A stretch of DNA of 64,000 bases from a virus, in the IMG/VR virus record IMGVR_UViG_3300034683_000333, one strand, 5' to 3'. The notes beneath the pieces are model-generated. The model saw only the letters and a program-made list of their open reading frames with translations. It did not search any database and was not told where the DNA came from. Position 1 is the stretch's first letter; each line of letters starts with the position of its first letter. Below, in pieces: positions 2,070 through 62,313 of this stretch. Position numbers and translations under genes: made by a program.

Positions 2070-3248
2070 TTAACAAACAAATCCAAAAGTTTCGTATTCG
2101 ATGTTGTTCTTTTTTAGAAATTCCTTTGCCTGTTCAAGCCGATACGTCTTTTTGAGAATCATGTTTTTAAGACAGTTAGCCACAATTTGTTCATCTCCAT
2201 TTTCGTAAGCCCCAAAGAGAACCGGGGAATATTCTTTGTAATCTTTCATCACAATTTCCGCAAATTCTTTCCTCGAATTAGTTGAATTACGTAAATCGTT
2301 AAGTAATTTATGAAGTTCATCAACCGTTGTGTTAAAATAGTTAACAAATCCCTGCCACAACGAAGTTACATAGTCTCGTATTGCTGTTTGATCGTTTGGT
2401 ATGTTATTCATCAAATCATCAATTTTTTCTTCGAGAACGAGACGAATAATGTCATTTTCCCGAATGCCACTTCCCGATATCAACCGATGCCGTTCAAAAT
2501 ACCAACTGGTTTTCAGCTTAACAAGTTGATCGGAATAAACCAAAATCCAACCTTCAACACCTTCCAAGGTTTTGCTCTGGTTTATCAAGTGATCCAAAGT
2601 CATGTTGTCGAATCGCCGTGCAACTGGGATATCGTACTTGGTAATGAGATTGGTTGCGTAGGGGTCGTTATAAATATCAAGGTATTCTCCAGTCGTCTCA
2701 TCCCTCATCTGAATGAGGGTAAGCGATGGTTTGTCATAATAGATGACGATCTGATTTCCCGGAGCACAATATTCAAAAATTGCCGCTTTTCCATCGGAAA
2801 TCGTTTGTTCAACGAATGCACGTACATTTGGGTTATTTTCGAAAATGATCTGTGCGTTTTTGGCCGGATCAGATTCAAATGAAAGTTTCGTTTTGGCTCG
2901 AATGTTTCCGTTCACAGGAACAAAGCGAATCATTGATCCATCGAGTTTTTCAACAACGTACAACAGGTTTTTATTTTTCAATTCATGATACTGGTAACCA
3001 TCGGTTTCATTGAGATTGAAAAATTTATGAAGATGTAAAAATCTAGAAAAACAATCCGATCCGTTTTCGACAAAAGTAAGTCCCCTCAATTCCTGTGCAT
3101 TGAAAATGGAAAAATCTTGGGGAGTCGCAAGCATATAGGAAAACTGATAGACCTTTTTGCCATCAATCAATTCTTCTTTTACCCGAAAGGAAGTAGAATT
3201 TTTAACAATTTCAAAACAAGTGTTGAGATCTGGTAAATAAAAAGACAT
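2070..3248 (-). CDS. T4 Rnl1-like RNA ligase
   Basis: Nucleotidyltransferase motifs VEKLDGS (I), EGVEGWIL (IV), VKLKTSWY (V), plus HLHKFFNLNE. No internal TAG; ends TAA. Confidence 0.85.
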   Translation of the reverse strand: MSFYLPDLNTCFEIVKNSTSFRVKEELIDGKKVYQFSYMLATPQDFSIFNAQELRGLTFVENGSDCFSRFLHLHKFFNLNETDGYQYHELKNKNLLYVVEKLDGSMIRFVPVNGNIRAKTKLSFESDPAKNAQIIFENNPNVRAFVEQTISDGKAAIFEYCAPGNQIVIYYDKPSLTLIQMRDETTGEYLDIYNDPYATNLITKYDIPVARRFDNMTLDHLINQSKTLEGVEGWILVYSDQLVKLKTSWYFERHRLISGSGIRENDIIRLVLEEKIDDLMNNIPNDQTAIRDYVTSLWQGFVNYFNTTVDELHKLLNDLRNSTNSRKEFAEIVMKDYKEYSPVLFGAYENGDEQIVANCLKNMILKKTYRLEQAKEFLKKNNIEYETFGFVC

Positions 3249-3268
3249 GGATTAAACACCCCCTTCAA

Positions 3269-3622
3269 TTAAATTTCTTTATACATTTCTTCTTCTGTCC
3301 AATCAAGTGATGGATCAATTGGATTACCATTTTCATCAACGAGATTGGTGAAGATGTTTGGTCCCGAAGACCAGATATCTGCGGCTTCTATTTCATAAAC
3401 GGTTCTACCATCTTTTAATACGTATCCTGGTAGCATTACTTCGTGGCTATATGGATTAAACACGTCAATGTAGAAATATTTTCCGTCAACTATTTTCATT
3501 TTGTCGTATGTTTCTTGTAGTTTGCCATCAACGTACACTTCGACTTTTTCTGTTGCGGCGTTTTCATCGAGAAATTCGTAGGCACGTTGTGTTAAACCTA
3601 TAAAAGTTGTGGATCTTGCCAT
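3269..3622 (-). CDS. Hypothetical acidic protein
   Basis: ORF track. GGGGG SD before ATG 3622. Ends TAA. Confidence 0.6.
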   Translation of the reverse strand: MARSTTFIGLTQRAYEFLDENAATEKVEVYVDGKLQETYDKMKIVDGKYFYIDVFNPYSHEVMLPGYVLKDGRTVYEIEAADIWSSGPNIFTNLVDENGNPIDPSLDWTEEEMYKEI

Positions 3623-3639
3623 TGTAAGTCCCCCATGGT

Positions 3640-3867
3640 TTAATCTAGTGTCCAAGCGGTTTTACCATAAACTTGAAGATAAATAATTGCATGATTGATA
3701 AAAAGGGCTTCTGGATCGATGATTACTGGAACTTGTTTATCAACAAGCACCATGGCCTCACCCAAGGAAAGATCATGTACGTTTACAAGAACGTACTCAT
3801 CGGTTCTGAAAACATCAAGATTTTTGGAATGTTCGGGATGATAGACAACGACGGTTTTCATAATCAA
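3640..3867 (-). CDS. Small hypothetical protein
   Basis: ORF track. GGAGG SD before the ATG. Ends TAA. Confidence 0.55.
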   Translation of the reverse strand: MIMKTVVVYHPEHSKNLDVFRTDEYVLVNVHDLSLGEAMVLVDKQVPVIIDPEALFINHAIIYLQVYGKTAWTLD

Positions 3868-3884
3868 CCTCCAACAACAGTGTT

Positions 3885-4152
3885 TTAAGTACGAACACTA
3901 ACAAGAAGTGTTCCTCCTTTCGGAGTTATTTTGCCCATCCCCAATGTTAGACTGGCTTGTTTTGTATGTACCACTGTCCCTACCCCTCAGGACTGTTTAG
4001 GTACATGCGGCAGAGCATGGGACTTGAGCAGCATCCCATGGTGTCATGACCAGTCTAACGTAGCCCGATGGAAAGTTAATCTTTCCCATGGCTGAGGGTA
4101 GTCAACTAAGGCTTTTGCAAGCCTCCACCTCTATAGGTGGTGGGTAGTTGAC
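3885..4152 (-). ncRNA. Orphan IscB omegaRNA (second copy), truncated after the first few iscB codons
   Basis: Near-identical to the 36590-36848 region: GTCAACTACCC...GTTGACTACCCTCAG...CTACGTT...AACATTGGGGATGGG...CCGAAAGGAGG...TTGTTAGTGTTCGTACTTAA, then diverges. No iscB ORF and no right-end hairpin. Confidence 0.85.
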
Positions 4153-4227
4153 AAATACCTCCGTAAGTTAAGGCACAAGGAAGTCTCTAGAACTTCCAAG
4201 TGCCCCCAAAAGCCGAGTGTTGTTGTT

Positions 4228-4437
4228 TCAGTACCAATACTTAATCCGATCAAACCAAGTATTTTTCTGTTTGAACCTCATACCATGTTCTTTATAAAAA
4301 TTATTGAGATCTTTTTCCCGTTGTTTTTCATTTTCATCAATTCTTGACTCAAAATCTTCTTTTAATTGATTAAATCTATAATCAGCAAAAACGGTAGCAA
4401 GTAATGACCATTGAAAAAACGGGTAATAGGCAAACAT
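4228..4437 (-). CDS. Small membrane-anchored / coiled-coil hypothetical protein
   Basis: AAGGAG SD before ATG 4437. Hydrophobic N-terminus followed by a charged helix. Ends TGA. Confidence 0.55.
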   Translation of the reverse strand: MFAYYPFFQWSLLATVFADYRFNQLKEDFESRIDENEKQREKDLNNFYKEHGMRFKQKNTWFDRIKYWY

Positions 4438-4456: not shown

Positions 4457-4465
4457 AACTAATTA
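4457..4465 (+). promoter_or_regulatory. Putative late-promoter motif AACTAATTA upstream of the tape measure gene
   Basis: The same motif recurs on the coding strand upstream of most virion gene units. Confidence 0.6.
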
Positions 4466-4523
4466 TATTGATTACATTAAATCTATTATATACCAAAACA
4501 CATTAGGGGTCAATAGTAAACCA

Positions 4524-7500
4524 ATGCCTAAAACAAAATACGAACAAACCGAACCCAAAATGATCGATCCAGAAATTTCTGGTGCCGCTGAAATGATTGG
4601 TCAAAGTCTTGAAATGCTTTCAACCGCTGTTTCTAAATTTGAACGTGCGGGATCGGCGGTGGATGCATTTGCCACGAAACTTCGTTCGGTGAGTGAGGGA
4701 TTTTCAAATGCCTTGTCAACACTTAATAAGTTGGCAAGTGGTGGTGGAGGTGGCGGAACACCGTCGGGAGTTGGCGTTGGTACTCGACCTTTGCCGGGTG
4801 ATCCCACATCACTATTGCAACAAATCAGTCAAATGTGGGGTCAACCTTCCCCGTTAACGGGCCGTAGAATGGGTGCTGGTTCGATTTCAAAATTATTGTC
4901 AGAACAAGCCGGGTATTCACAAATGGATGTTCAACGTCTTATTAAAGAAGCTCAACGTGGAGAATATGGAGATGTTTTTAAGAGAAAATTAAACGAATAT
5001 GTTCACCAACCCAACTTGGAACGGATGCAGACAACGAACATGGCTCCGTCTTCCAACGTGGCACGTACATGGAGCGATGTTCAATACCTAAATCGAAAAC
5101 TTTCCGATTGGGTTGAAAAACAAACCCAGCGAATTGCTTCACTTCCAGGACCGGAACAACAACGACGGTCCATGGGGCCGACACCACAGACGCAACAACC
5201 ACCGTGGTATGCACCCACTCAGCCTCAACGTATTGCTTCCACGGCCCTTGTCCCGGTATCTCAAGTCGGGAAAACACCCCCACCACCCCCACCTTCTCCC
5301 GCAACTCCTCCACCGACGGGTGGTCCAAAGCAGTTGCCTGTCCCGACCAAACCCCAGGTTATTGTTATTGAACCTAAAGATATACCACGTAGGGGTGGGT
5401 TTGGTCCAACTGCTACTGGTGCCGGTGGCGGTTATTTACCACCTCCTGGTGGCCCTGGTGGTGGAGAGGGTAGAAACTGGCGAGATTGGGAACCACCCCC
5501 TGGTGGTGGAGATGATGGTGGTGAATCTGGTGGTAGTCGTGGCGGTGGTGGAAGGATGGATGATTTTCTAATGACATTTGAGATGATGAACCCATTTGCG
5601 CCGAGGAACTTGGCGTGGTTGGGAATGTTTTCCTTTTCTGGTCAACTCTAGCCTGCAACCATGGCCCTTAGTCAACCAACCATGATGGCTGGTCAACATT
5701 ACCAAAATGTCGTGGAAGGTCTCAAGCAATTTGGATCTTCTTTTTCCGGGCTTCCAAGGTTATCTGGTTTATTTCAACAAATTATTCAAACAGATGCCTT
5801 TGATCTTTATGAATCAATGCACCAAAGTTTTACTGTTTTGAAAAATGTGTATTCAAGTTCAACACGTGCAGAAAAGATTATGGGACAATCCATTCAGTTG
5901 GCCCGTTCAACTCCCCTTGAAGTACGAGATCTTTTGGGAATCTTTTCAACATTTTCGGTTAACCCCGAACTTCGTGGGATTTTAAGTAACAGGCAACAAA
6001 TGACTCAATTAGCAACGGGTGTTGCTGGTTTATCGTTCTTAGTTCCAGAACAGGGAACGGAAGGTGCTATTTTTGCCATTCGTGAAGCTTTGGCTGGACA
6101 ATACCGATCCATTAAACGCCGTTTTAATATTTCACCCGAAATTATTGCATCATCGGCTGGTATGACGCTTGGAGAACTCAAGGAAAAACCAGTTTCATTC
6201 CTCGAAGCACTTGATATATTTTTGAAACAAAACCTTGGTCAAAATACATTTACGGAACTTCAAGATACATTTACCAAACAGGTTGGAAATATTTATGACT
6301 CATTGATGGGTGGAATTTTCCGTGGTTTCAGGGAAACGAGTATATATTCAAACGTGACGATGTTTGCCAAGGAAACTAGTAATGTTGTGGATCGTTTGTT
6401 TAAATCAGACGTATTTGGTAATTTTTTTCAAAATTTCTCTCAAAGTATTAACACCAATTTTACTCGTGCTGTTGATGTTCTAAGAACGATTGATTTTGAT
6501 CGTGATCCACCGGAACAAATTCGTGAAAAAGCCCAAAATGCTTTTCAATATGCCTTTTCGAGTATCATTAAGGACACGATTCCAGCCGTTGATGCGTTGA
6601 AGGAAGTAGTAACGCCTATTGCAAGTAAGCTAAGTGATGCCATGATTTCAAGCATGAGTCGAACGGTTGGATCAATTTTTACTGGAATGATGGGTGCCGG
6701 TGTTAAACAAACCATTCTATTGGGAACCAGTGTTGCCAGTAAATTGGTTCCTGGAGAAACGCTTTCGGGTGCAGTCGAACAGATGGGAGAATCGTTTGGT
6801 ACGTTCGCAACGGAAAATCCGTTTTTAACGATTGGTGGACTTGCCGTTGCAAGCAAGGGAATCATGGGTCGTGTAAGGGGATTTCTCACAAGACCGGATG
6901 TTGCGGATGCCGGTGGGGTGCTAAATTACCTGAGTGCTAGGGCAACCCAAAGTCGTGGAATTGGATATTTGATGAGTCAATCCTTTTTGGGTTCACGGGC
7001 GGCGATCCCAACCTTCATGGCTCCGGCAATTCTTTACCAATTTTATCGAGATTATCAAAAAATTCAAGAAGCTACCAAAGCTCAACCAGTTGATTACGAA
7101 CAACAAGCCGATATTCTCCAATATATGGCGGCCCGTCCAGGAGCACCCATTTCTGATATCATGGATCAGATCAACGCTCTTGGAACCAACTTTGAAACCG
7201 AAAAAATCCGTTTCGGTTATGGTGATATTGCCACCCACTCACTTCTTGCCGGAAGTCTCGCTTAGGGTGCTTTGGGTCGTGTGACTCCCGATTGGGCACT
7301 ACAACGCATCGGAACTCTCCCACAGAACCGCTTTGTGAATGCGTTTCGTCGTCCAACCGCCTGGGCATTGGACCGATTGGCCTCCATGTCAACCCTTCGT
7401 CGTCAATTTTTGGGAGCGGCTGGAGTTGGATCAGCCGTTGGACTTGCCGGACTTATGATGGAAGGTGATATTGATGTTTCTAAAAGATTCATGGCAGATT

Positions 7501-10037
7501 ATCGCCAAGGTGTCGGTTTGGTTCACACACTTGGTAGTGGTCTTTCCATGTTGGGATTTATGACAGGTAATCCTTACGTTGGTTTGGCTGGAGTGGCCTT
7601 ATCTGTTGGTGGTGAGTTTGCTGTATCTAAGTATTACGAACATAAAACCGACGAATATAGAAAAACAATTAACAAACGAATTGAAGAAAACCGACAAATT
7701 GTTAACAAACAATTATCTTCTTATCTTAGTATATTGGATAAACAACCAGAAGAAATTGTAAAAACACTTTCTCAAGATACTGGTGAATTATCCAATGTTC
7801 TAGGACTTATTGATGTTATGGGTACGAATTGGTCACAGAAACGAGATGAGTATTTTTCAAAACTTGTTTCTTCTGGTGATATTGGTCAAGAACGGTCTCA
7901 AAAACTAAAAGGAGTGATTGCACGGAACATAAAGCGAATTTCGTCAAATGAAAAACAATATAAGGCTTTAATGGATGCAATTGGTAAGAGTAATGTGGAA
8001 AGAGTGAAGGATATTCTTAGTTTAACTTCAGAAGATGTCGGTGGAATTAGAAATGAACAACTATTTTTATCTGCTATTATGGCAGAAGCATTAAATCTTC
8101 AACAACAGTTGCAACCAACACTGGCGACGGATCTCATGTCAACGATTACTCAGTCACTTATCGAGCGAACGAGAGGAACTGCATTTGGTAATGTTTTAAG
8201 ACGAAATTATACGGGTGAAGTGCAACGTACACGAACCATATTTTCATTGGATAGACAACAAAGAAATCTCAATCAAATTAAAGAGTCTTTAGAGGATGTT
8301 TTTACTGCTTCTATAATGACTTCGATGCCAGAAATGAAGCTTGAAAAAGCGCAAAATTTGGCTTCAAAGGAAGTATCTCGTGTTTATGATCTGGATAAAG
8401 TTTCTGGTATCATGAACACATTGCGTCAATATGCTGTATCTGAAAGAAATTTTTATGAAAGTCAGGTATTTGGTCTTGATGAATTTGCTAAGTCGGAAAT
8501 AAACCGAAATGCTGGTCCACGAACAATTTTTCAAGAAGCTGACGAACGGGTAAAGGCGCTTCGTCAATTTGATCAACAATCTATTGGAAGATTGTTCTTA
8601 AGTAGAAGTGTTGATATGTTCGGACAACAAAGCGCTTTGCCGTGGATTGGTTATCAGTTTGCACAGAAAAATCCACAGATGATGAGTCCAGAACTTTTTA
8701 GAGAATTTTCAACAAGAACAACAGATTTGTACGGACAAATTTTTGAAAAACAAGTTTCACAGTATTGGAATGTTACCGCAACAGCAAGAACTTCCATCGG
8801 AGAACTATCAGAAGGTATAAACAAGTTCAAAAATGTTGCAACAGAAAGTCAACTAAACGAAAGCATTAAAAAATACAATAATGCTAAAAATGAGTTTATT
8901 GATAGTGTTGTAAAGCTTATGGATACACGTCCCATTGAAAGTGCAATTGATAAGAATACTCGGCTGTATGATATGGCACCAGAATCCATAACATCCCAAC
9001 AACTTGATCGTGAAAAAGTTATAGAAAAGATTACTAAAGAAGCTGGTACTTGGGATGTTAATAAAATGCGTGAATATCTAATGGGTGAAATGACACGTGG
9101 ATTGGCACCCGAAGAACGTGGTACCATGCTTGAACGTATTGATAAGGAAATTTTACCAAAATATGGCGAAACTTTAAAATTTAAAAACGTTTCATCAACC
9201 GTGGAAAATCTACGTTCGTTTATGCAGTCATCGACGGAAGAAATTACTCCAATGTTGGTACAATCCATGAATGCACAGCAGGTACAAAATGTTTATGCCA
9301 CGATGCAAAATTATTTGGAACAGGTATATGGTGGAATGGGAACATCCATGAATATTATGGGTATGATGGCTGGTGGTGTCCAACAAACCCTTGGGGGTGG
9401 TGGCGGTCTATTTGGTTATGTGGGAATGGGCGAAACGTTGCTTCCTGGACAAATAACCGTCGGGGGTGTTCGGGCCACCAACCCCTTTGTTCTATCCGAA
9501 CAGCGAAAACTCGAAGAGGAGTCCCAGATTTCATAGGAAGATCTCAATAAACTTCAGGGCCAGCGATCCGTGGTTCGAGAACAATGGACACAGCAAATGA
9601 GCAAGGTCCTGAACTTCATGGTGGAAAATCCAGAACAGGTTGATCCGGCCATGCTTAAGCAGGTTGCGGAATATCAAAAGATGGGTGTATCCATGGGATT
9701 TGGGATGAGTGGAGAACAACGGGCCATGCTTGCCCAGGTGCAACTCAACATGCTCTCCAGGCAAGGAGAAGTTGTGGGATCGTTTTTTGATGAGATGCAA
9801 TCGGGTCGTATGGGGCTTGCCAAGGACATTCTTTCCCTTGCAGGTCAATCGGGTCTCGATTTGGGCGAAATCGGTGGAAAATCTCCCATTGATGATCTCG
9901 TTCGAGCAAAAGACGGAATTGTTGGAGCACTTCAAGAGCTTAAGGAATCGCTTTCCAATGCGGCAAAGGACATCGGAGAATTGTTTGAAAATCTTGGTAC
10001 CACTCCCGGTAGCCGGGTGGAGGTTCCCAGTCCATGA
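4524..10037 (+). CDS. Tail tape measure protein, 1837 aa, 3 in-frame TAG
   Basis: Track ORFs 4524, 5661, 7272 and 9570 share one frame and are separated only by TAG (5649, 7263, 9534). Ends TGA. Has the tape-measure-like motif GAIFAIREALAGQYRSIKRRFNI, Ala/Gly/Leu-rich helices and a Pro/Gly-rich linker. Confidence 0.8.
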
Positions 10038-10957
10038 AACGAAAAATTATTCTATTTTGTTTGATGATCGTTTTCACTTGGGGAACGGTTTATTCCATGG
10101 GTTGGGTTGGGAATAATCCAACCCAACCTATTTCTGAACAAGAAGGTTCTGATGTAAAAGATGATTCGATGGAAAAGCCGGTTATTGATTCAGTATCCAC
10201 ACCACAAAAGATTTCCATCACGAAAGAGTGGTTGCAAACGATTAAAGATACATTTTTGGAACAACACGATGAAATGTTGGAAATTTTGAGTGAAAAATAC
10301 GGTATCGAAGATTACAAGAAAGCATCGCAATATAAGTTTCGTGTATGTGGTGCAAAATTTTACAATTGTTACGTAGAAAGTCGTTATAAGTATTTTGTTT
10401 CCTATGCAAAATACATTGAGAAATAGGGAAAATTTTATTTTAATTTAGATTATGATGAATTGGCTTTCAGGCTTATTTCATCTATTGCTTGGTGTGAATC
10501 TGGATTTAAAGCAAATTTGGTAAGCCCCGATGGTGGTTATGGAGCTTTTCAGGTTACTCCATCGGCGGTTGGAGATAAAACAATTGATGTTTCCCGACTT
10601 TTGAATCCAGATTATAATACTCAACAAGGAGTCTATATTCTTTATAAATTTTGGAAATCTTCATTTGATCTACTCCCACGAAGTCTTAAAGAATATGACG
10701 AAACGATTCGGTGGTAGATCACGTTACGTGGATATAACGGTGGATATAAATGGATTAAGAGAATTCTGGATCGGTGTGTGGAAGAAAATGACTATCAAGC
10801 TTTTATCGAGACTGTAGTTTCGGGTGATTTTTTGAATACAAGTAAGTGCAACGGTAGATTTTTATGTTACGAACGTGTCAATGTATCCTACCCAATCAAA
10901 ATATATATAACAGAAGACTGGTTACTTAAATTAAATATAACGATTGGGGGGTTTTAA
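10034..10957 (+). CDS. SLT-family lytic transglycosylase with N-terminal signal/TM segment, 307 aa, 2 in-frame TAG
   Basis: Motif I AWCESGF, motif II GYGAFQV. Motif III TLRGYNGG lies beyond TAG 10715, so readthrough is needed for a complete domain. Ends TAA overlapping the next ATG. Confidence 0.8.
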
Positions 10958-11469
10958 TGGAAAGAACATATAGAAGGTCCACCCGTTTTTCTACATATAC
11001 ACATTTCGAAAAAGACGAACTTGAAGATATTATTGATGAAATAAAGAAAACGGGTGTAATTCCTAAAGGAAAATATATTTCTCCGCCACAAATCGAGCCC
11101 TTTTTAAAGGACTTGTACTTTAGATTACAAGATATGTACGAAGATGTGAGAAACGGGAACGTTGATGATTCGACGAAACGATAGTTTGACATGACATTTG
11201 ACCAAATGAAAGCCGATTTCATCAATTTAAGCCAACCTATTTAGTTACCACTTATCAAAAAATTCTAGATCGGAAATTCCTTCAGAGAATTACAACACAC
11301 CGTTATAATAAAAATAATGGAAATTTTAAATAATAATACATATAATAAGGATAAGGCGGCTATTACGTCGTGGATTTACGAAAATGTATACTGGGTCCTT
11401 TTGAAAAACCTCAAGGATGAAAAAGAATATGAACAAAAAATGCTTACTTTAATTGATTTTGAGGGATAA
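10957..11469 (+). CDS. 170-aa protein with sigma-factor region-2-like pattern, 3 in-frame TAG
   Basis: Reads ...FINLSQPI*LPLIKKF*IGNSFRELQHTVIIKIMEIL...KAAITSWIYENVYWVLLKNLKDEK and ends TAA 11467-11469. Similarity judged by eye only. Confidence 0.35.
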
Positions 11470-11473
11470 AAAA

Positions 11474-11887
11474 ATGGCTATGCAAATCGATACAGGATTT
11501 ATTCGTGGAACCATTTCTGATGTATATGAAACAATCAAGGGATTGGGTTATGAATTTGATATTGTGGTGCAGGAAGTGGATCTCAATACGGGAACAACCA
11601 CCGATTTTACGACAAAGGGTCTTTGGGTGAGTCACGATACGGTGACGATCAACGAACACGTGTCGTTGCAGGTGCAAAATTCGCCTACAGTTTACGTGAA
11701 ATTTGAAAACCTCATGGATGGAACAAATTACATTGTACCAAAATTTAATTAGCGTATTAAACGGATAGATGTTATTGATTTTGATCTTGATAGAACAGGT
11801 GAAGAAGTCGTTTACGAATCGAAAGTATATAGTATTCAATCCATCAACCGTGTATTTAATTTATGGATTCTTAGGTTGAAACTCTAA
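11474..11887 (+). CDS. Putative head-tail/neck protein, 1 in-frame TAG
   Basis: ATG 11474, TAG 11750, TAA 11885. Beta-rich and located between tape measure and terminase. Function inferred from context only. Confidence 0.45.
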
Positions 11888-11903
11888 TTTTGGGAGTTTT
11901 TTA

Positions 11904-12380
11904 ATGGATTTAACAAGTAGCCACCTAAACAATTTTTATACGTTTGCGATGTTGGAACCCGTCTATGGGTTTGGCGAGGGGGAGAGTCGTTTGACTTCGT
12001 TGGAGTTTTCTCCCACGTAGGATCTGGGTTGTGTCATGCCGTCTTTGCTCAGTCGGGAAATGTCTCATTTGATTATTAACGATTACGTGATGGAAGAACT
12101 TACTCGCACCACAATCATCAACGATATTTTGTCGAAACATGATTCAGTCGTCGTTTGGGATGGAACGAATATTCAAACCGATGATACTGGGATAACATTT
12201 ATAACAAATAGATTAAATTTTTATGATTATCTTCTTATACTAAACATAGATAATCCACTTATTGATAAAATCAATTTACAATTATCGGAAGATCTCATTC
12301 AAGAAAAGTATTTTGCGAATTTGGTGATTGATGAGGAATTTTTCAAGGTTTTTAGAATTTATACAAAAATGAAGATATGA
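11904..12380 (+). CDS. Hypothetical protein, 1 in-frame TAG
   Basis: GGGAG SD, ATG 11904 in frame with track ORF 12036, separated by one TAG (PT*DLG). Ends TGA. Confidence 0.6.
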
Positions 12381-12398
12381 TAATATATGGGGGTTTGA

Positions 12399-14141
12399 AT
12401 GGCAAAAAAAAGAAGATTTCGTAAACAAGATAGCCATCTTATTCAACCAAATAGCGAGATAGATGATAAGTATAAAGGTAAAGATCCAGAATAGTATAAA
12501 AAAGAAATCCAGAAATGTAACAACGGATTGGATGGAGCAAAGTATTTTATCAACAATTATATATATGTACCGAATAAAATTGAACAACGTATTATCGAAT
12601 CAAAACCTAATTGGTTTAAGCATCTCATATTTGAAGGCGATCGAATCAATTTAAAACTATATGGAAAACAAGAAGAATATCTTGAACACTTGTTTTCAAA
12701 CCGTTTGGTTGCTACATATAAAAGCCGCCAAACTGGTATTAGTACAATTACATAGGCTTATATATTGTGGTATGCCACATTCAATAGTAGTAAGGAAGTT
12801 GTTATTGTGTCCAAATCAGAGACGGAGGCCATTAAATTTCTTGAAACGATTTATTATATGTATAATCATCTTCCGTTCTTTTTGCGGCGTCCCTATTCCA
12901 AGGCCGTCACCAAATCGTTTTGGTTGGGGGATCGAAACAGTGCAACGAAAATCAACGTTCTCACCTCCACCGCCAAATCCGGTCGTAGTTTTTCAGCGAC
13001 AATTCTTGTCCTTGATGAATGTGAGTTTATTGACTATGCCGATACGCTTTGGGGAGCTGCCCAGCCCACATTGTCCGCCACGGGTGGTCAGGGTATTTTG
13101 ATTTCCACACCCTGGATGTATAATTCGTGGTTTTGGGGTGTATGTAATCCCACCGATCCCGAAAATCATCCATTCGACGTTTTCAAAATTCACTGGAGCG
13201 ATATTCCCGGTCGTGATAAGGACTGGTACGAAGAACAGTGCAAGGAATTGAACTGGGATCAAATGAAAATCAAAACGGAATTGGATATGCAATGGATCAT
13301 TCCTTACACACTATATTTCAACGAAGAACACTTAAATGATAAATATATTGTTGATAAGAAAAGTGTGTATAAATACGATAAACAATAGAACTTATACATT
13401 CTTCATGAATATAACCCAAATGAAACATATTATTTTGGAATTGATACATATGAACAGGGTAATGATTTTAATGCTGGAACTATAATTGATTCAACGGGAA
13501 GAGTATATGCGTTTTTTAAAACTAAGCGAATTGATATAAGGGAATTGATTATTCATCTTTGCGAAAAATACCATGTATTGGCAAACGTAGAGCGCAATCG
13601 TGGTTTTTGGTTAATCAAGGAATTTATGGATAACGATATTGCTGAAAAGTATTTATTATATCAAGCGAAAAAGTGGAAAGGCATTGAACGCAAATATTTT
13701 GGATATGTAGTTAATGAAAATCGCCAAATGATCTTAAGTTATCTTTCATCCTGGCTGAAGGATGTAAATGTTTACAACGAAGTTGTTGATAAAAAGGAAT
13801 GGATTCTAATACCAGATGAATTGATGGAGGAAATGAAATACTTTGTAATTAAAAATCGACGCATTGAAGGTTTGAAACATGACGATGGTTTATTTTCACT
13901 TGGTGCCGCACAATTCGTGTTGAATAATCAAGATGTTTTTAAGAACATCGAAAAAGAACACGATGGAAAAACGGTTCCACCCGATGAATTTTATAAAAAC
14001 GTAAATGATCCAAAACGAAAACACCAACGAAAAATGTCCGTTGAAAATATGAAACGTCTCCTTTTGGGAAGCCGTGAGATGAGTCCATCGATGTCCGTTG
14101 AAGAGTTATTGGAGATGGAAAGGTTGCTCAATAAAAAATAA
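12399..14141 (+). CDS. terL: Terminase large subunit (T4 gp17-like), 580 aa, 3 in-frame TAG
   Basis: Walker A KSRQTGIST, Walker B ILVLDECEF, coupling motif LISTP, nuclease YFGID and KHDDGLFSLGAA. ATPase and nuclease domains join only through TAG at 12492, 12753 and 13386. Ends TAA. Confidence 0.9.
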
Positions 14142-14201: not shown

Positions 14202-14669
14202 TTAACTGGATAGACTCTTAATCCAATCCATTTCTCCATCTGTATCCATATTTTTCGTTGTATCGTTTAGAAGTTTCTTCCATTTAATTAGGTATTCTTG
14301 AATCTTACAACTTGTTTCCAATAGTTTGAAAAGAATATCTTTACGATGTCCAATTAGGTTTACAATGGAATCGTTTAATTTCTTGGCCGTGTCAAAAACA
14401 GAAATGTCAATAGATTCCTCGATTTTTTCAATGTATGTTCGAATGTATTCAAGTTCATCAATCAGCATAATAAGACTATAATAAAGTAGGTTGTTTATTC
14501 TATTTGGCGAATGTTTCAGATCAATAGTTTCTGCTATATCTTGTAAAATACCATTTAATTCATCAATAGCTTCTTTAATACTGTCACGGACTGTATCTTT
14601 ATTTGGTTGTATAAGTTGTTTATTTATTTGTTCAAAATTATATGAATCTTTGTTAAATTCTAATCCCAT
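14202..14669 (-). CDS. Helical hypothetical protein downstream of the major capsid gene
   Basis: AAGGAG SD before ATG 14669. Ends TAA. Confidence 0.65.
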   Translation of the reverse strand: MGLEFNKDSYNFEQINKQLIQPNKDTVRDSIKEAIDELNGILQDIAETIDLKHSPNRINNLLYYSLIMLIDELEYIRTYIEKIEESIDISVFDTAKKLNDSIVNLIGHRKDILFKLLETSCKIQEYLIKWKKLLNDTTKNMDTDGEMDWIKSLSS

Positions 14670-14692
14670 AATCTCACTCCTTAAGTTGAATT

Positions 14693-14722
14693 GGGGGAGA
14701 TGGCTTTTACACCATCTCCCCC
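14693..14722 (-). other. Strong 11-bp hairpin directly after the capsid gene (attenuator or mRNA stabiliser)
   Basis: GGGGGAGATGG...CCATCTCCCCC, with no U-tract on the transcribed strand. Confidence 0.5.
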
Positions 14723-14744
14723 CCAGATCAGTTAGGATCATTCA

Positions 14745-15896: not shown

Positions 15897-15991
15897 TTTT
15901 GTTTTTCCCCCTATGGTTTTTATTTAAGTTTTTCTGCTTTTTTTTTTTAATTTATTTTGACTATCCAATAAAATCAATTTATACGATTACT

Positions 15992-16000
15992 TAATTAGTT
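15992..16000 (-). promoter_or_regulatory. Putative late-promoter motif AACTAATTA upstream of the capsid gene
   Basis: Plus-strand TAATTAGTT in the intergenic region. Confidence 0.6.
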
Positions 16001-16012
16001 ACACGTTATAGA

Positions 16013-18769: not shown

Positions 18770-18778
18770 TAATTAGTT
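18770..18778 (-). promoter_or_regulatory. Putative late-promoter motif AACTAATTA upstream of the protease-scaffold gene
   Basis: Plus-strand TAATTAGTT, 40 nt upstream of ATG 18730. Confidence 0.6.
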
Positions 18779-22082: not shown

Positions 22083-22127
22083 GGGTACTAATTTAGAGAT
22101 ATTATAGCGATTTAACAAACCAAACCA

Positions 22128-50580: not shown

Positions 50581-52866
50581 TTAGACCAACGTAAATTTAA
50601 AAAACCTTCTCTATTGTCCGTAATGTTCTCTTATGTTACCATAACTAACTATATACCAGTCTGTTGTGAAATTAAGGGTACCTGCGTATGGTCTTAAATC
50701 AATTAGAAAGGGTCTTGATACATTGTTAAAATCGATATGTTGCCAACCACCGTCATTCCACCAAATTTCAAGATTTAGAGTGCTAACGGGATAAAAGAAT
50801 AACATCAGAAAATCGAACGCCTCTCCTGGATTGAAATAAGAAACAAGTGCACCTTTTCCGGGGTTCTGCAAATTACCATAGGTAATATCTTTGATATTCC
50901 ACCGTGAATTACTTACAGTTTCGATGATTGTTGTATCACTACACGCATATACAGTTCCATATTCCAATAGTTTAATTTCATCAGCAAAATTTGGTAGAAC
51001 CTGTCGTATCTACGGAGTTGCATTAGTATACATATCCATATAAGTCTAATCAACTAATGGAAAACCATCAAAACCATTATAGTAACCGCCTGTAAACTTA
51101 GTATACGTACCACCGAACACAACAAACTTTTTGTCGTCTACCTGAACAACACGCTGTCCATAAGCGGGACGAAAGTCAAATTGATACTGTGAAAGTTTAT
51201 TATTCATGACATCTAATCTGCTAATGGTATTAGAAAGTATCGACTTCGTGAAAAAATCATTATAAGATGGTTGAATCCCTTCTTTAACTTGTGCAACGGC
51301 TTTCCAAGCGGTCCAACCATCAAACGTACCGTCGGCGGAATTGTAACAACGTGGAATAATGGCGTAAGCAGGATCAATACAAATTGCTATCCTTGACATT
51401 GGACTATACCAAGGATCGCCATTTTCGTAATTCGCTATATCAACGACTGTTTGATCACTCCATTCATACTCCTTAATCGTCCAAGCCAATTCACCACTAC
51501 TAACCTGATCCGTGAAGTAAATGATATACACATCAGAAGAGGATATTGAGTTAGTCTCCGTTGCCAGAAAAGAGCGACCACCAAAATTATTATAATTATA
51601 TAAAGTTCCATCCTATGTCATAACTGACATGCCAGTATATGTCGAATAACCATAGGCATATGCTGTTTTTCCTTCATCATAATAAGTTCCAGATGAATTA
51701 TAGTTGCAAAATGGACCACCACCAAAATAAACATACCCAGCACCATTTTCTACATTAAAATCATGTGTATAACATTTAGAGACTAAGGCCCCATATTTAC
51801 CGGTTGTATAATCTGTCATGCTAGATACTACAGTACGATCTGTTGATTCATTCAACGTTAACTGAAGCTGGTGGTGCATGATGGAAGTTCCGTCGGCAGG
51901 ATTCAAACCACCATTTATATAAATTTTAATATCGGCGGTTTTATATAGTGATAATATTGGCCCAATGGATGGGTATGGATTAGTCCAATCAGTAGAATTA
52001 TCACTGTTCTTGACAATTGTGTAACTAGAAGTATCAAGAGAATATGCATATAAAAATTGATTTACTGTATTATCATCTTGATACCAGCCACCAGCCATAT
52101 ATAAACTATTGTTATATGGTACCTAAATGATATCATGCTTTGCAAGTGGAATACCAGTGTTAATTATTGTATAAGAACTTGGATTATTTTTTACATCTGG
52201 AAAAACAATTAGTTCATCACTTATATTTCCACTGGCGTCATATCCACCATGTACATACATTCTCGTTCCATCATAACATGCGGCGTGCCACTTGTTAATC
52301 ACAACATCCATCGGGGCGGAATAACAACCATAACATTTTGTATCAAAATAAATATTACCATCCTAATCTTCCTGTTTTATCGTCTTGAAGGTCATAAGTG
52401 TTGCATTTGGACTATCCGAGTGTTCAACGTAAACAGAACTAGTTACAGGATTCTTATAGTCATCGGTATCAGTATAATGATACATCTCATCTTCTTGAAC
52501 AGTTAGATTCTGTACTTTAGGACTTACATCGAAAACCCACACATCAGTTGAATCCAAGCTTACACACAAAATCCACGTTCGATTATTTGGGATAAATTTA
52601 GTGGAACTATATATATATCCACCAGTAACAATAAATGATTTGACTTTATGGTTTAAGTAGGTTTGTGTTCCTCCAATTTCGTGTACATGTTGCATACATA
52701 TATTATCCACACCAAAAAGAGTTGAAAAATCAAACAAAACGACTTCGTTGGTATTTGAATTAAACACATAAAGGTTTGTATTTACCTAACTTGGGTCTGT
52801 TGAATGTAGTCCAACGTCTTTTCCATAAGTTGTGTCAACCTTAAGCTAAGCTCTATCGTATGCCAT
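50581..52866 (-). CDS. Kelch/beta-propeller protein, 761 aa, 8 in-frame TAG
   Basis: TAGGAG SD and ATG 52866. Kelch-like RMYVHGGY, LYMAGGW, YVYFGGG and FVVFGGT motifs. Ends TAA 50581. Confidence 0.7.
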
Positions 52867-54777: not shown

Positions 54778-57700
54778 TTACCGAATATATTTTACAGTTG
54801 CTTTGTATGATAAATTGGTACCATCACTTGTTGTCACTTTAATACCACCTATTTGTTTTTTATTTTTAAATTTACCCTTAATTTTTACCTTTTTAGCTGT
54901 AGTTGTGAAGAAACCGAACTTCGGAGGCTCCATTTGCTCAAATTGATCTTTCACGGTAAAATCATAATTATAGTTCCATATAGACAACATTTGTTTTGCT
55001 AACTTGTCGTGTGGAATCATTGGACCAATAACAAACAAGTAATCACCAGCTTCCCTATCCTATAATCTAAACGACTGTAACATATTTTTCTATTCTGGAA
55101 TAATAATATGTTCCAGGTTCGTATCAAGAATACCACCAAGCGGTGTATTCAAAGGTGTGTCAGATTTACGAACGATACGTACTGGAGATACTTGTAAATA
55201 CATATAAGTAGGATATTTGCGTGTCATTTTCAACCGCATGGTAGTGGAATCAACATTTGATAGTGTATAATCACAACCATTTACATAACTAGTCGAACTT
55301 GAATATCTGTGTGTATACGTAAAAGCAAACATATATGGAGACAACTTTGATGCATCATACGTTCCATCCATGGTAAAGTCCATGGTGACAGTAGACAAAG
55401 AATCCATGAAAAATCCATTACGAGCTTCGTTTTCGCTAATGTTGCTAGGTGAATAATATCCTATTACATGATCCTAAAAATTCCAATCAACCGAATTGTC
55501 TATGTAATCCAAAACAAGCGTGAATCCAAAAAGATCCAAACTATCAGCAAGATTTTCGACAGATTGATCATATTGTTCTGGTATCGTAGCAACATCCGTT
55601 GCAACGGTTGGTAAAGGTGTTTTATCTGAATGAAGAACAACATATGAAAATGGATATCCGGTTATGTCAGTAACAAAGTATGAAAAATCAACTGGTGTAA
55701 AATCTGGATATTTAAGTTCCGATGAAGCAAAATTATAAGCAAATCGATTATACTTCAAAGATATGGTACCAACGACTCGTGGTTTGGTTAGCTTATAAAG
55801 TTCTCGTTGAATTACATATTCATAATTCGGATAAAAATTATCATACATAGCATTGGAAAATGGAACAAAAACAAATTCAGTATTATTCTGCAAATCAATT
55901 GTTAATAAATTCCGTCCTTGTTCATTGGACATAATGGCTTTTGTTCCACCATTAGAACTAGCGTTACCATAAACAATTTGATCCTATGTAACCGATCCAT
56001 TTTTACACGAATCAACAAAAGCGGTTTCACTGTTAATATAAGCAGAACTAAACGGATTAAGTGCTGGATGAGATAAAAAGGTTTCTTTTGAAAAAGAATT
56101 TGAATAATCAACAAATGTTAAGTCCAGATCTATAAAAACATCATTGAAATTGTATAGATTTCTATCTTGGGATTGACTAAGTGTATATACTATGTAAGGA
56201 AAATAACCATCTACAGTATAGTCAATTGAATCGTATACATCATCTGAGAATACTATGGTATTGTCCCATAAATCATAATTCCAAGTCGATAACCAAAATA
56301 CGTCAAAATCAAGAGATACACGCTTCACAAATTCTGGAAATACGATGGATGTCTTGAATGAAGTGGCGTCCCAAAGCTGGGGTACATTGTATCCAACAAC
56401 CTTCCCTGAACGAGTTTTTTGACGGTTGAAATCAAAAAGAACGATCGGAAGACCATTGTGCCAACGCACCGTTGGATGAAGCGAATTCCAGAAAATGTAC
56501 TCATGTTCCAAATCAACATCTTCAAAATTTTCATAAAAGATCAATCCATCATAAATGTCAACCGCATCGCTTTCAAACAAAAGATGATTTCGTGCATCAA
56601 TGTATCTAAGTTGATCCATTTCCCTATCATAATAAACAATAAACTTTGGATTTGGATCAAACCAATATATTAGAGTTTCTTGTTGGGGTTCTGCAATTGA
56701 GGCATTAAAAGCCTTATACAATAGTTGATGATAGTTATGAATGTTGTCAATTGAATAACAAAGATGTCCATAAGTAGAATCAACATTATCGTTGGCGTAG
56801 TGATACGTGCAATTCACCTTATTGCAATAAACAATGATCTCATCAAATGTCTGCACATCATAATTATAAAAAGTAAGTGACAAAATGTAATAATCATCAT
56901 TTTCATAAAGACGATCCACAATTACTTCACCAAAACGCTTTACCAGTTCAATATGTTGATAAGTTGTGTCGTTTATGATGATATCAATGGTATGCTCATG
57001 TTTATTGATAATTACGTTTGTTGGTGATAAAGTAGAATCCGTATAGAATGTCATTGGCAACTTATCAAGATATGCTGGGTTGAATGTACCATCGGGGCTT
57101 AGTTCGCCACCATAGAGAAGATTATTGTCATAAAACTCTATAAAGAAACGTGAATCGTCGAGGTTTGTTTTATAAAGATTGTAAACACCCAATTTTTCAT
57201 CGATTATCGCATTCGCAGGAACATTCATTGAAAAAAGTCTTCCAGAAACTTCATTGTAAAACCACCAAATGTCCCCATATTTTGCCAACGGATAGGCATA
57301 AAGAAGACCCGTAACATCCCAGGAATGAGTCAAACTAGCTTGAGCTGATTCGTCGTGCCACCAAACGGATTTCTAGGTCTTATCAGTTGTGGCGTTGAGG
57401 TTTCCAAACACGGTGTGATCCTGAATGTAGGGAATTGATACTTCCAAAAACTTATCAAAATAAGGAAGACTCACGTAGACTAATGGATTACTTGAAAAAT
57501 CGAATGACAAATGAGAAATCCAAGGAATCTTCTTTGCAATCTCCCACTGAAGCGGTGAATGGATGTTTTTAACCACCAATTCTGTACTCATACCCGTGGA
57601 ATCGGTGACATCCAAATGAATGGCAAAATCATTCACCCGAGTAATCGTCGTTTCGACGATGTTTGACCAATCCACCGCAGGATTTGGCGTTCCCCAGTGA

Positions 57701-60700
57701 AAAACGGTTTCTTGATTTGTTAGATCATAAGTTCCAAGATCAAGCGAACCGGTTGTAAATCTCCTATACGTTTCTCGATCTTCGGATACAAGATCATCTG
57801 CCGCCTCCCACTTGAGCCAAAAATGCATTCTCGTCACAAAATCCCCCGTAACTTGAAGGGTCGTCCCATCAAATGAAAAGGTCGCTGGAACAAAATCCGT
57901 CGTCCAGTCGTTTGATAGGGTGGCCCATAGATGATTTCGATCGTCATTGAAATTGCAACCCGAAACGGATGTGTTGAGATTTGTGATGTCCACCTGACGC
58001 CAGTTGAATGCAAGCTCCAGATTGATCTTGGCATCTCTTAAAAGCGCCTAGTGAGTGGAATCGGCTGTAAGATCGTACTTGTATATTGCCAATTTATCCT
58101 TTTCAGTTCGATTGAACGTTCTGCCAAAACCCAACACCCAGTCGTTACCTTCGTTGGTTGTCCAAACCGTTCCCGTTTCCGGGTTCCATTGCTTTGGTGA
58201 AAGAACTGGAAAATAGATATTTGAGTGGAGAATGGGCTTTTGGACCAATTTTTCCGGTTGTTTTACTGGATATAGAAATTCATTTGTCGTTTTATCAAAC
58301 GTACCGGAAACGGGTTTTACAAGTCGTGTCCAAACCGTAGACTAAATTTCGGGGTCCTTAGACTAATAACCATACGGTAACAGCACAAAATCGTCACACG
58401 AAATGACACCATCGGTTTCAATTAATCCAACTCCTTCTGTAGTACGCTGAATCCAGCGCATATCATAAAATCGATTCGTTTTAAATACGTAATTTGCCCA
58501 TACATATCCATTATAGGACGCCGAAAAACAATCATTCGTTGGAACATAAAAATACTTCCACATTGCATTGTGATAATTTTCCAGACTAATATACGTTGAG
58601 TCAAAATTCTATTTACCAAACTAACCAAGACCACTTAACCACATTTCCTTCTTTTCTGGATGAAGTGTTGATGTATAAATCGTTGGAACATTATCAAGAA
58701 CTTCTTCATTGAGCAGTTCTGGAACCTTGTAGGATGGTGCGTAATAATATCGTTTTTTATCGCTAGCTTCGAGTAATACATATTTACTAATATCTGTTTT
58801 ATAACTTATTGTGTAATAGTTATCAAACTTTGCTCCTAGAAGCCTTGTATGAGTATTCACATCTAGGTGTTGTCCGTAAATAGAACTTAATTCTTCGGTA
58901 TAATAGGGCTTCCCATTTGTTCCTTGTCGAGATGAACGTAATTCCAATGTATTTTGAGTGTGTATAAGTAATTTAGGATAATTTATTGATAACCAACCAA
59001 AATCATACCGATCATAAATTTGGTATTCAGATGGATATGGAAATTGAATGTCATATTCATCTTTAAAAATCAAATCATAATTGTCCGATATTCTATCGAA
59101 CCTGGACAACCACAAATACATTCGATCCTGCGGCTAACGCTGTGCCATTAGAGTTCCATGCGCCAAAATCTAACTATACACATTATCATTATCTAAAACA
59201 TATTCATACTTTGTGCTGTTAAATGTTATTCTATTACCGATTCTTGAATGACTAACATTTGGTGGATTAGAAAGATCCACGATAAATTGATAAAGCGAAC
59301 CACTCGCATCAAAAAATATTGGATCTAATTCTATTGTCCATATAAACCATCTGTTTGTCTTGTGATCCTAAAACGTCTAGTGTTTATTATATCCTGTGTT
59401 ATTATAATTCCATAAGAGACTTTCATCACTAAGATAATAAGCATCTTCTTCGACCCATTCCGTACCATCCACAAGACTCATAAACACAATCATAGGTCGT
59501 TTGCTTTCTGAATAATAGTTATCTGTAACGTCTTCTGGGCCGATGAATACAAATTTTGTGTCGTCAATTTGTTCAAATGCCTCTGCTAACCCAATGTACG
59601 TATTGGGAATGTCTGGTAAATCAATCCAAGTTGATGTATCTAGATCAAAAAGAGCTAAATTCTAAGGCTTGGTAAATCCACCCTAACTAAATCGCTTATT
59701 GATCATGTGAACCTTATTGTTCCTAACAGTAGATGGCAACCACATCGTATCTGATGTATTGACACCAAGTCTCTCAACTGAACGGTTTTCTAAATCATAT
59801 AATAGTGTCCCAACCCCATCAGGATTCCATCCACCAATAGTACCCTACGAGTACTTACGGACAATTAAATATCTACTATTAAAATAAAAAATATTAAGAT
59901 TTGTCATTCCAGCATTATCATTTATCTAACTTTGTAATGATGTTCCGTCCCATCGAAATACTTTACCAGTACCTTGATCGTAGTGAAACAGTTGTGTATT
60001 ATCTACAGCAAAAACGGAATCCGTGAAAAATGAATAAAACAATTCGGAGATCTATGTATTTTTCTGAAATACCTTCAACGATGGATTATTGAATACTGTC
60101 TGGTCAGCATTAACCGTTACAGAGTCATAATCATATAAAATATCGTTTTTAAAGCTGTTAGTTATAACAATGGATGTTTCATCAATATGCGTCACATCAA
60201 ATGATCGCACATCATATTCAGGTAATTCATATCCTTTATAAATAAAAGTTGATGCTGTATAATCCGGTGAAATGGTTAATGTAACAAAACTATCAACAAA
60301 TGACTAATGTTTGGTAAATACGCCAGATGAATCAATTTGTAAGAAACCACGATTACCTGGAATATCCTCTTCTGCTACATCAAACTTACCCTTTAATGAA
60401 CTGTGAAGTGAATAGTATTCTGTATTATATATAAAATCATAATAACCAAGACTCTAATTTCCTGTAATATCGTTTATTGTGCCACCATAAATATTATAGA
60501 CTTGCTTATATGCTGGATTCTAATAGGCTGCTTGTACAATATATGGTAATGTTCTAGGAATAGTAATTTCTTGTACTGAATCAACAAAAATACTACCCAC
60601 ATTAATAAGACTCTTTCCAAAAATTGTAGGATCAAGTGAATTTATCAACCAACCACCGCTACTTTGTATGTTATAAAATTTTACATTGTCCCAAAAACGT

Positions 60701-62313
60701 GTTTCAACAAAATCATACGGACGAGATATTACACCGAATGGCGTCCGCTTGACACACGGATTGCTCTTTGACCACTGACCCAACGTAGCAACCGGAGCCG
60801 CATCATAGGGTCGGTTTCTTGAATACGTAAACGTTCCAACCATTGGCGTTCCATTGATAAACGAAATCCTCGAAACATCGCTCACGATTGTAACATCAGA
60901 CGAAAGTTTAAGCTTGTTACGATTGATCCAATAAATTCCAGTCGTAGTATCCACCAAAACATCTGTGAGCGAAAAAGTATCTTGGTCGATAACCTAATTT
61001 GAAATGGAATAATCGATAAGTAGGTTATTCAACGGATGAAGAATAAGCTTTGTTGAATCGATGAGATTAGAAACTTCATGCTGTAATGTATCTGAATTAA
61101 AAACTACCTGGATCGGCACATACCCCACAACACCGGAATTGAATTGAATCATCATTTGATAGCACGAAACATAAGTTGTTTCATCCGTGTGTTTATGTAT
61201 GTTTGAAGATTGAATTTTTATGAGCTTAGCTTGTGAAAGTAAAGAATTGTCTATAAAGTTTAAAACATTAAACGTTGTATCAAATGAACCGTTTTTTCCG
61301 GTATACCACTTATTTCTTACAGATTCGAAAGTTGATCGTACTTCACCTTCTTTATGTTCTGGAGCATATTGTAGTAGTAATTTGTGTGTTGGAATAGTAT
61401 AAATATCATTAGAATTTATAAGCGGCGGAGTCGATAAACCCTAATTATATGTTGGCTAGTCATTCCACGAATATCCATAAAATGCGGAACCGTAGTTTAC
61501 TGATGTACTATCCAAGCCTCGAATAGAATATTCTTTTGTTATTGGAGAATATTGAAAAAACTTCCAATTCCAATCGAATGAATACTTATATGTTCTTATT
61601 ACAAGGTTGGTAGAATCCACATACATATCATAGAAAACTGAAGTCACATTATTTGCTGGTTGTCCAGAAATGAGTGCAATGAATGATTTTCTTCGGTGCT
61701 TAAAAAGATTATAAAATTTTTCCTGAATCGTAAATGAACTCTTAATAATGTCGTTTGGTGGAACAAAAAGATGCTTAATCGCTTTCTTATTATATACCGC
61801 ATCCACAACCTTTGAAAAATCCGTGAAATCCGTTTCCAAAACCTTAAAAGAATGAAGAATCAATTGGGGTTTTATTCTTTGATGGGTTGAATCAATAAGT
61901 AAATCTTCTACAATAGGATCACTCACTTTAGCTAATACGTCATCGAAATTGATGGAAAGATTACTATCAAGATAATTATACCAATTGTTTACAAGATCTT
62001 TTCCATATTGTTCGTTACTAGCAAGATTATTTTCCAATTGGATCATTTCATCAACAAAAATATTATTTAACCGGCTTGCATAAACATTGAAACAAAACCA
62101 TTTTAACGAATCGTTTCCTATAGTCTTATAATCAAAGAGTGCATTCTTGTTATTTTCGAGTGTAAAATCACGCAGTGGTGTCTTGATGGCAACCCATTCC
62201 ACACCAGGCACGGCATAAATGGACTCATCAACATATTCTGCAAAAAATTCTTGTGTTTCTCTCCGCTAATCAATAATCTTCTAATCCAGGTTTTTAACCG
62301 AAAATTTATTCAT
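54778..62313 (-). CDS. Giant beta-rich putative tail/baseplate/receptor-binding protein, 2511 aa, about 27 in-frame TAG
   Basis: Hand translation from ATG 62313 (GCGGAG SD) to TAA 54778, using the ORF track inside its ORFs, found no TAA or TGA. Joins ten track ORFs plus about 1.4 kb with no track ORF (59122-60519). Confidence 0.75.

Follow-up and report, generated by a model that had tools for sequence, protein, structure and literature searches.

The DNA considered here, a stretch of 64,000 nt (one strand; hereafter the window) of the IMG/VR virus record IMGVR_UViG_3300034683_000333, raises the question of whether in-frame TAG codons are scattered over the genes of a phage or follow the order in which these genes are expressed. 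An initial annotation had claimed that TAG use is compartmentalised, with virion and late genes needing readthrough and early genes working in either code. When each gene was assigned to its nearest upstream element, either a sigma70-like promoter or the heptamer ACTAATT, the sigma70-like units were found to contain 1 TAG and 41 TGG (here and below, counts of in-frame codons), as opposed to 106 TAG and 254 TGG in the ACTAATT units (Fisher P=2.7e-5), and at least one TAG was present in 1 of 13 genes of the former class versus 21 of 24 of the latter (P=2.8e-6). We consider it probable that the phage reads TAG as tryptophan (Trp) and that its TAG use follows the transcription programme, early genes avoiding TAG before the suppressor system works.

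Decoding of TAG

TAG is a sense codon in the genes of the window. With TAG as sense, coding density is 0.93, up from 0.80 when the standard code is applied, as compared with 0.83 and 0.85 in the TGA and TAA controls; the 90 open reading frames (ORFs) of the standard code, covering 80% of the window, give way to 49 long ORFs covering 93%, and proteins of 1837, 1598 and 2511 aa exist only as merged ORFs with TAG readthrough. A set of 47 genes, also covering 93% of the window, was curated on the basis of starts preceded by Shine-Dalgarno sites and of a codon-usage score that served to drop spurious antisense ORFs (872-1807, 30728-31156, 34045-34500, 36610-36867, 40764-41138 and 62828-63526). Together these genes contain 116 TAG and 343 TGG, TAG making up 25% of the Trp codons.

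Because the measure TAG/(TAG+TGG) presupposes that TAG stands for Trp, the identity of the amino acid was tested inside the window, mainly in the following genes:

345-827, plus strand: DUF5662 gene (Pfam, 1e-38), 4 TAG and 7 TGG
12399-14141, plus strand: TerL (Pfam Terminase_6N), 3 TAG and 15 TGG
41684-42094, minus strand: AdoMetDC, SpeH-like (Pfam PF02675, 2.9e-17), its sole Trp codon being TAG
50581-52866, minus strand: Kelch-repeat protein of 761 aa, 8 TAG

In the DUF5662 alignment, TAG15 falls in a column occupied by W in 107 of 119 homologs, and TAG139 in a column with W in 114 of 119; of the remaining two TAGs, one occupies a hydrophobic and one a variable column. The only Trp codon of AdoMetDC lies within HT[TAG]PE, which corresponds to the motif HTWPE of this family. 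In the paralogous pair 26683-29430 and 29481-30518, the single TAG is opposite W, and in the terminase of a metagenome contig, L001, which is 55% identical to TerL of the window, all six TAGs (6/6) are opposite TGG in the window, including positions of near-invariant Trp. TAG330 in TerL is opposite Y/Y/Y/W/W/F/F, and TAG248 in the Kelch-repeat protein is opposite hydrophobic residues. Decoding of TAG as Trp is thus supported by sequence comparison, and a glutamine reading (code 15) is not supported, in view of the TAGs opposite near-invariant Trp, the W of the paralog and the TGG codons of relatives. Literature searches did not turn up TAG=Trp in any bacterium or phage. Three database relatives of the terminase (P0001-P0003, 52-54% identity) show Gln at conserved Trp columns, which is probably the product of code 15 translation by gene callers, so that public protein sets probably contain mistranslated members of this lineage.

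Promoter classes and the distribution of TAG

Sigma70-like sites were scored as consensus matches of at least 10 of 12 positions. Out of 40 such sites, 5 are intergenic, and 4 of these 5 lie 36-73 nt upstream of TAG-free minus-strand genes in the correct orientation:

4485-4513, minus strand: sigma70-like TTGACC-17-TATAAT, 11/12, 48 nt upstream of the start at 4437
33469-33497, minus strand: sigma70-like TTGACA-17-TATAGT, 11/12, 54 nt upstream of the start at 33415
37994-38022, minus strand: sigma70-like TTGACT-17-TATAGT, 10/12, 36 nt upstream of the start at 37958
40669-40698, minus strand: sigma70-like TTAATA-18-TATAAT, 10/12, 73 nt upstream of the SNF2 start at 40596
40737-40757: terminator-like hairpin, just upstream of the sigma70-like site at 40669-40698
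4458-4464, 15993-15999, 18771-18777, 22087-22093, 29475, 30539, 32965, 42175, 50291 and 62348-62357: ACTAATT sites

The number of ACTAATT copies in the window, 17, is within chance expectation; 10 of them are intergenic, intergenic DNA being 11.7% of the window (P=4e-6), and all 10 read in the sense direction towards a gene start 27-97 nt further on. Two further copies can be added, one provided that 42233 is the true start of the 1598-aa ORF and the other on counting a copy that touches the stop codon at 29481. We regard ACTAATT as a candidate middle or late promoter of the phage. The copy at 62348-62357 forms a palindrome, ACTAATTAGT, between divergent genes, and the copies belonging to the major capsid protein (MCP) and scaffold genes are followed by TATAAAT nine bases further on.

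The transcription units delimited in this way are listed below, together with the named genes not given above:

2070-4437, minus strand: early unit 1, RNA ligase and three small genes; 0 TAG, 9 TGG
33044-40596, minus strand: early units 2-4, with a 123-aa gene, DUF488, a 166-aa gene, RRXRR-HNH, 107-, 178-, 62- and 92-aa genes, and SNF2; 1 TAG, 32 TGG
4524-14141, plus strand: unit headed by the ACTAATT copy at 4458-4464, comprising the 1837-aa protein, SLT, TerL and three small genes; 13 TAG, 42 TGG
14202-18721, minus strand: head unit with a 155-aa gene, MCP and a 902-aa scaffold-like gene, with homologs in the relative genome G001 (see below) and ACTAATT at 15993-15999 and 18771-18777; 1 TAG, 13 TGG
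22128-26643, plus strand: four genes of unknown function behind the ACTAATT copy at 22087-22093; 12 TAG, 28 TGG
26683-32929, minus strand: three ACTAATT units (motifs at 29475, 30539 and 32965) containing UDG, a 557-aa gene and two phrog_21015 paralogs; 6 TAG, 36 TGG
42233-62313, both strands: large-protein module with a 1518-aa gene (plus) and 362-, 769-, 761- (Kelch), 203-, 401- and 2511-aa genes (minus), and ACTAATT at 42175, 50291 and 62348-62357; 74 TAG, 134 TGG
2070-3248, minus strand: RNA ligase (Pfam RNA_lig_T4_1, 7e-18); 3 Trp codons, 0 TAG
10034-10957, plus strand: SLT (Pfam SLT); 2 TAG, 8 TGG
14745-15896, minus strand: gp23-like MCP (Pfam Gp23, 1.5e-13); 1 TAG, 3 TGG
20841-22082: primase-like gene; 1 Trp codon, 0 TAG
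30628-31242, minus strand: UDG (PF03167, 6.8e-19); 0 TAG, 2 TGG
33517-34065, minus strand: DUF488 (Pfam, 1.9e-21); 2 Trp codons, 0 TAG
35269-36600, minus strand: RRXRR-HNH (Pfam RRXRR, 1e-70); 443 codons
38410-40596, minus strand: SNF2 (Pfam, 4e-39); 0 TAG, 11 TGG

In agreement with the initial annotation, the RNA ligase, primase-like, UDG, DUF488 and SNF2 genes lack in-frame TAG and end in TAA, SNF2 being a protein of 731 aa (ORF 38410-40605); a macro domain, which was also on its list, was not found in searches of Pfam (E up to 1) and PHROGs, of the PDB with phmmer, or of the Atlas. The genes behind sigma70-type promoters, said to be free of TAG, are so with the exception of a single codon at 35299-35301 on the minus strand, which is codon 434 of the 443 codons of RRXRR-HNH, nine codons before TAA. 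Phage homologs of this protein align only to residue 427, short of the TAG, and since the gene is whole under either code, TAG434 possibly serves as a genuine stop in the early phase, i.e. a host-code stop that is later read through. Gene ends in the window show no general excess of TAG (3 observed versus about 3 expected), and the absence of TAG stops among about 17 early genes is uninformative by itself.

On the TAG-rich side, the gene coordinates and the 1-27 TAGs ascribed to each of the tail, terminase, SLT and capsid genes agree with ours, which are 1 TAG in MCP, 2 in SLT, 3 in TerL, 8 in the Kelch gene, 12 in 47947-50256, 20 in 41993-46789 and 27 in 54778-62313. The designation "tail" found no backing from homology, as the large proteins of 41993-62313 have no PHROG matches (nor do the large proteins of G001) and the label reflects only protein size and the Kelch repeats. 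The scaffold gene, noted as an exception among late genes, is indeed one: this 905-aa gene beside the MCP gene has 0 TAG and 8 TGG.

The partition is also seen in tests made without assignment to promoters. Blocks defined by strand switches differ in TAG share (chi2=29.4, df 8, P=2.7e-4); in a class-free runs test, the 459 Trp codons taken in genome order form 150 runs versus 174±8 (P=0.002), and the longest run of TGG alone extends over 33 codons (35433-41335, P=0.004). TAG accounts for 2.4% of Trp codons in the early minus-strand blocks (2070-4437 and 33044-40596; 1 TAG, 41 TGG), for 21% in the head, packaging and unknown genes (38 TAG, 141 TGG), and for 35% in 41993-62313 (74 TAG, 135 TGG). 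With the large-protein module left out, the promoter-class contrast is still seen (1 TAG and 41 TGG versus 32 and 119, P=0.002).

Within the TAG-using genes of at least 150 codons, TAG is preferred towards the 5' end: 8 TAG and 3 TGG occur in the first 20 codons, as opposed to 103 TAG and 258 TGG in the remainder (odds ratio 6.7, P=0.004). The overall Trp density of the first 20 codons is unchanged, other A/G pairs display no comparable shift, the starts concerned have good Shine-Dalgarno sites, and one of these 5' TAGs corresponds to a conserved Trp.

A relative genome, the proposed mechanism and its alternatives

Through terminase alignment we found a relative, IMGVR_UViG_3300039008_000120 (G001), a genome of 232,818 bp with direct terminal repeats, rated complete, with 26% GC and a terminase 33% identical to TerL of the window. 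Its coding density increases from 0.82 to 0.925 with TAG as sense, and it encodes a tRNA whose anticodon is CUA and which has U73 and a C1:G72 pair, as well as a TAG-free gene similar to tryptophanyl-tRNA synthetase (TrpRS; best PDB match TrpRS, 1.8e-14). Its TAGs, when aligned to proteins of the window, are opposite W three times and also opposite Y, F, I, K and E. TAG is unevenly distributed in G001 as well (per-gene chi2 338 versus 179±14; 229 runs versus 336±13): the helicase, PolB, RecA, NrdD, UvrD, two RNA ligase and TrpRS genes have 0 TAG and 49 TGG, and TerL, MCP, scaffold and two other genes have 15 TAG and 14 TGG (P=1.8e-8). The T4-type portal gene contains three TAGs, and RNA ligase is TAG-free in both the window phage and G001.

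The mechanism that we favour takes the following form. Since the genes behind sigma70-like promoters are essentially TAG-free, they could be translated in an unmodified standard-code cell; in the genes behind ACTAATT, TAG makes up about 20-35% of Trp codons, often within the first 20. Early genes would be under selection against TAG because they would be translated before the phage amber-suppressor tRNA and TrpRS accumulate, which implies a host treating TAG as a stop. Full-length middle and late proteins would depend on the phage tRNA and TrpRS, and TAG would constitute a second, translational lock added to the promoter switch. We infer, as did the initial annotation, that the host uses the standard code and that the switch takes place in mid-infection. 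A stronger version, which we put forward as a tentative possibility, is a double lock, in which the phage promoter motif is combined with 5'-placed ambers that would abort translation until a private tRNA-CUA/TrpRS pair is active, giving a graded, position-tuned timer written in an undescribed TAG=Trp code.

A number of observations weigh against this interpretation. Compartmentalisation was confirmed by pooled tests on transcription units and promoter types, and not as a clean split between virion and non-virion genes: TAG use is graded (about 2%, 21% and 35%), AdoMetDC, a non-virion enzyme, requires TAG readthrough, and the MCP and scaffold unit has 1 TAG and 13 TGG despite being late. The proposed comparison of TAG/(TAG+TGG) between functional classes was significant for promoter classes and not for classes defined strictly by homology (enzymes, 1 TAG and 24 TGG, versus SLT, TerL and MCP, 6 and 26; P=0.12). 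Heterogeneity among genes, given their Trp content, is weak (P=0.046); SNF2, with TAG at 0 of 11 Trp codons, is the only TAG-free gene that is unexpected singly (P=0.04), and most of the named TAG-free genes hold just 1-3 Trp codons, so that each alone says little. The early-block boundaries were chosen partly after inspection of the data; the total of sigma70-like sites is not above chance (27 versus 30 expected), so that only their placement is suggestive; and UDG is found in an ACTAATT unit and is therefore not clearly early. The 5' enrichment depends on 11 codons in the window, and in G001 it is seen as TAG density only (odds ratio 1.9, not significant). A search of the window for tRNAs found none, nor is there any aminoacyl-tRNA synthetase in the window. 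ACTAATT shows no enrichment upstream of genes in G001, which is a distant relative and indicates that the pattern holds in the lineage, while proving nothing about this particular window.

The alternative that fares best, although we consider it unlikely, is that decoding cost is the sole cause: TAG would be slow or leaky, with one phage tRNA set against release factor 1, and would be purged wherever expression or fidelity demands it, the early/late pattern being a by-product. It agrees with the presence of a gradient rather than a switch, with the near-absence of TAG from the presumably highly expressed MCP and scaffold unit, in which MCP has a GC content at third codon positions (GC3) of 0.65, and with the 35% TAG share of the large, presumably low-copy proteins. 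The gradient, low in head genes and high in large low-copy proteins, does suggest that TAG decoding carries a cost and that the most expressed late genes avoid it. Cost alone does not account for the small early genes of unknown function in the sigma70-like units, which are TAG-free as well with no reason for high expression, nor for G001, where MCP (1 TAG, 2 TGG), scaffold (1 and 1) and portal (4 and 3 in this count) carry TAG and the replication enzymes do not, nor for the first 20 codons of TAG-using genes, which are enriched rather than depleted in TAG. The 5' bias speaks for a gate, and the scarcity of TAG in head genes for a decoding cost.

It is considerably less probable that the TAG-free genes were recently gained from standard-code phages or hosts and are too young to have undergone TGG-to-TAG changes. 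RRXRR-HNH is a typical mobile endonuclease, and SNF2 may have been acquired recently, having 46% GC (GC3 0.51, well above its neighbours) versus 35-37% in most genes and a best viral-contig match in a standard-code phage with 50% GC (L178). The remaining early genes are of ordinary composition (GC 0.28-0.39), GC3 adds nothing once the module is modelled, and in G001 the TAG-free set comprises eight dispersed core replication genes, in addition to RNA ligase being free of TAG in both phages.

Chance combined with composition, by which the early genes would simply be few in Trp codons and slightly G-rich, with no real partition, is very improbable and largely refuted. Low Trp content does suffice for most TAG-free genes individually; in a gene list based on longest ORFs, 12 genes have no TAG versus 9.5 expected (P=0.17; heterogeneity P=0.08), primase, DUF488 and RNA ligase have only the few Trp codons listed above, and early units favour G-ending codons. 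The pooled, class-free and promoter-class tests given above reject this alternative. When GC3 is included in the model, the effect of module remains (likelihood-ratio P=2.4e-5), GC3 adding nothing given the module, and the TAG/TGG odds ratio in early units is 0.06, as compared with 0.36-1.0 for the 12 synonymous A/G-ending pairs; neither GC3 nor a general preference for G over A accounts for the pattern. Even at the odds ratio of the most extreme pair, 0.36, the probability of at most one TAG among 42 Trp codons is about 0.03, and in G001 the partition reaches z of about 8-11. Least credible of all is a host that itself decodes TAG as Trp, making a switch unnecessary, as it would leave the avoidance of TAG in early units unexplained, G001 encodes its own tRNA-CUA and TrpRS, and literature searches, including Borges et al. 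(10.1101/2021.08.26.457843), who saw only TAG to Gln and TGA to Trp in phages, yielded no such code.

Known recoded phages and further observations

The reading of such an asymmetry as a timing switch has indeed been published, for TAG=Gln and for TGA=Trp phages. The recoded phages of Borges et al. (10.1101/2021.08.26.457843; Lak, crAss-like, Garnet, Agate, Jade and others) use TAG=Gln or TGA=Trp, the only two reassignments that the authors say they observed; in the model given there, early translation proceeds in the host code, after which a phage suppressor tRNA, joined in Jade by an aminoacyl-tRNA synthetase, unlocks the late genes, the code-change genes being written in the standard code, and a bias specific to lysis genes is reported. 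No holin or endolysin cassette was identified in the window. Judging by those descriptions, the phage studied here shares with the recoded phages the near-absence of recoded stops from early genes, complete in G001 for the replication machinery and the TrpRS gene, and may share their concentration in structural and late modules; it differs from them in that TAG aligns with Trp, that the partition also tracks two classes of upstream motif and that TAG favours the first 20 codons. Mgcod (10.1101/2022.06.29.495998) has revealed block-wise dual-code genomes among TAG=Gln and TGA=Trp crAss-like phages, and the window is likewise made up of blocks compatible or incompatible with the standard code, although here the blocks differ by degree (2%, 21% and 35% of Trp codons) and not in an all-or-none fashion. 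The code-change module of Jade phages consists of tRNA-UCA, TrpRS and release factor 1, all in the standard code; G001 similarly encodes a Trp-charging enzyme, in a gene without the recoded codon, and a suppressor tRNA, the latter with a CUA (amber) and not a UCA (opal) anticodon, and no release factor was seen.

With the same asymmetry and the same model described by Borges et al., the compartmentalisation itself is of an already known kind. The novelty lies in the code involved, TAG=Trp, in the tie between the partition and two classes of upstream motif and, possibly, in the preference of TAG for the 5' end. An early/late split in the use of recoded stops is the main argument for regulatory code changes in phages, and its occurrence in an independent reassignment, of TAG to Trp, with two promoter classes and a 5' bias, would support the regulatory idea by convergence. 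The phage would also offer a compact test system, consisting of a single tRNA, a single TrpRS and clear reporter genes. On the practical side, genes of this kind come out split or mistranslated when they are called with the standard code or code 15.

The three TAGs of the 1837-aa ORF (4524-10037, plus strand) coincide with the ends of four standard-code ORFs, and an ATG, TTG or GTG is found within 3-11 codons after each, giving the look of four genes. A 2450-aa protein of G001 aligns across the first of these TAGs (codon 376), which favours a single protein of 1837 aa. In G001, nine TAGs are located 0-2 codons ahead of a TAA or TGA stop, about three being expected (L162-L173); they are possibly relics of TAG stops, or TAG stops used in the early phase, each backed up by the stop that follows.

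The MCP gene has 52% GC, as compared with about 37% for the genome, and its high GC3 suggests strong codon bias or foreign origin. IMG/VR scans with MCP and SNF2 returned no close recoded relative, a scan of genome contigs found no relative, and the homolog search with the 524-aa gene at 23455-25029 was empty. A gp55-like sigma factor was considered for 10957-11469 and rejected, as it received no support from Pfam or PHROGs. Upstream of SNF2, a small zinc-ribbon protein (41057-41398, minus strand) has 7 TGG in 113 codons and no TAG, and is flanked by TAG-containing genes. Finally, inteins are present in the terminase of a close relative, L002 (Ga0315293_10150787), and in the helicase and PolB of G001 (98603-101716 and 164469-167096).

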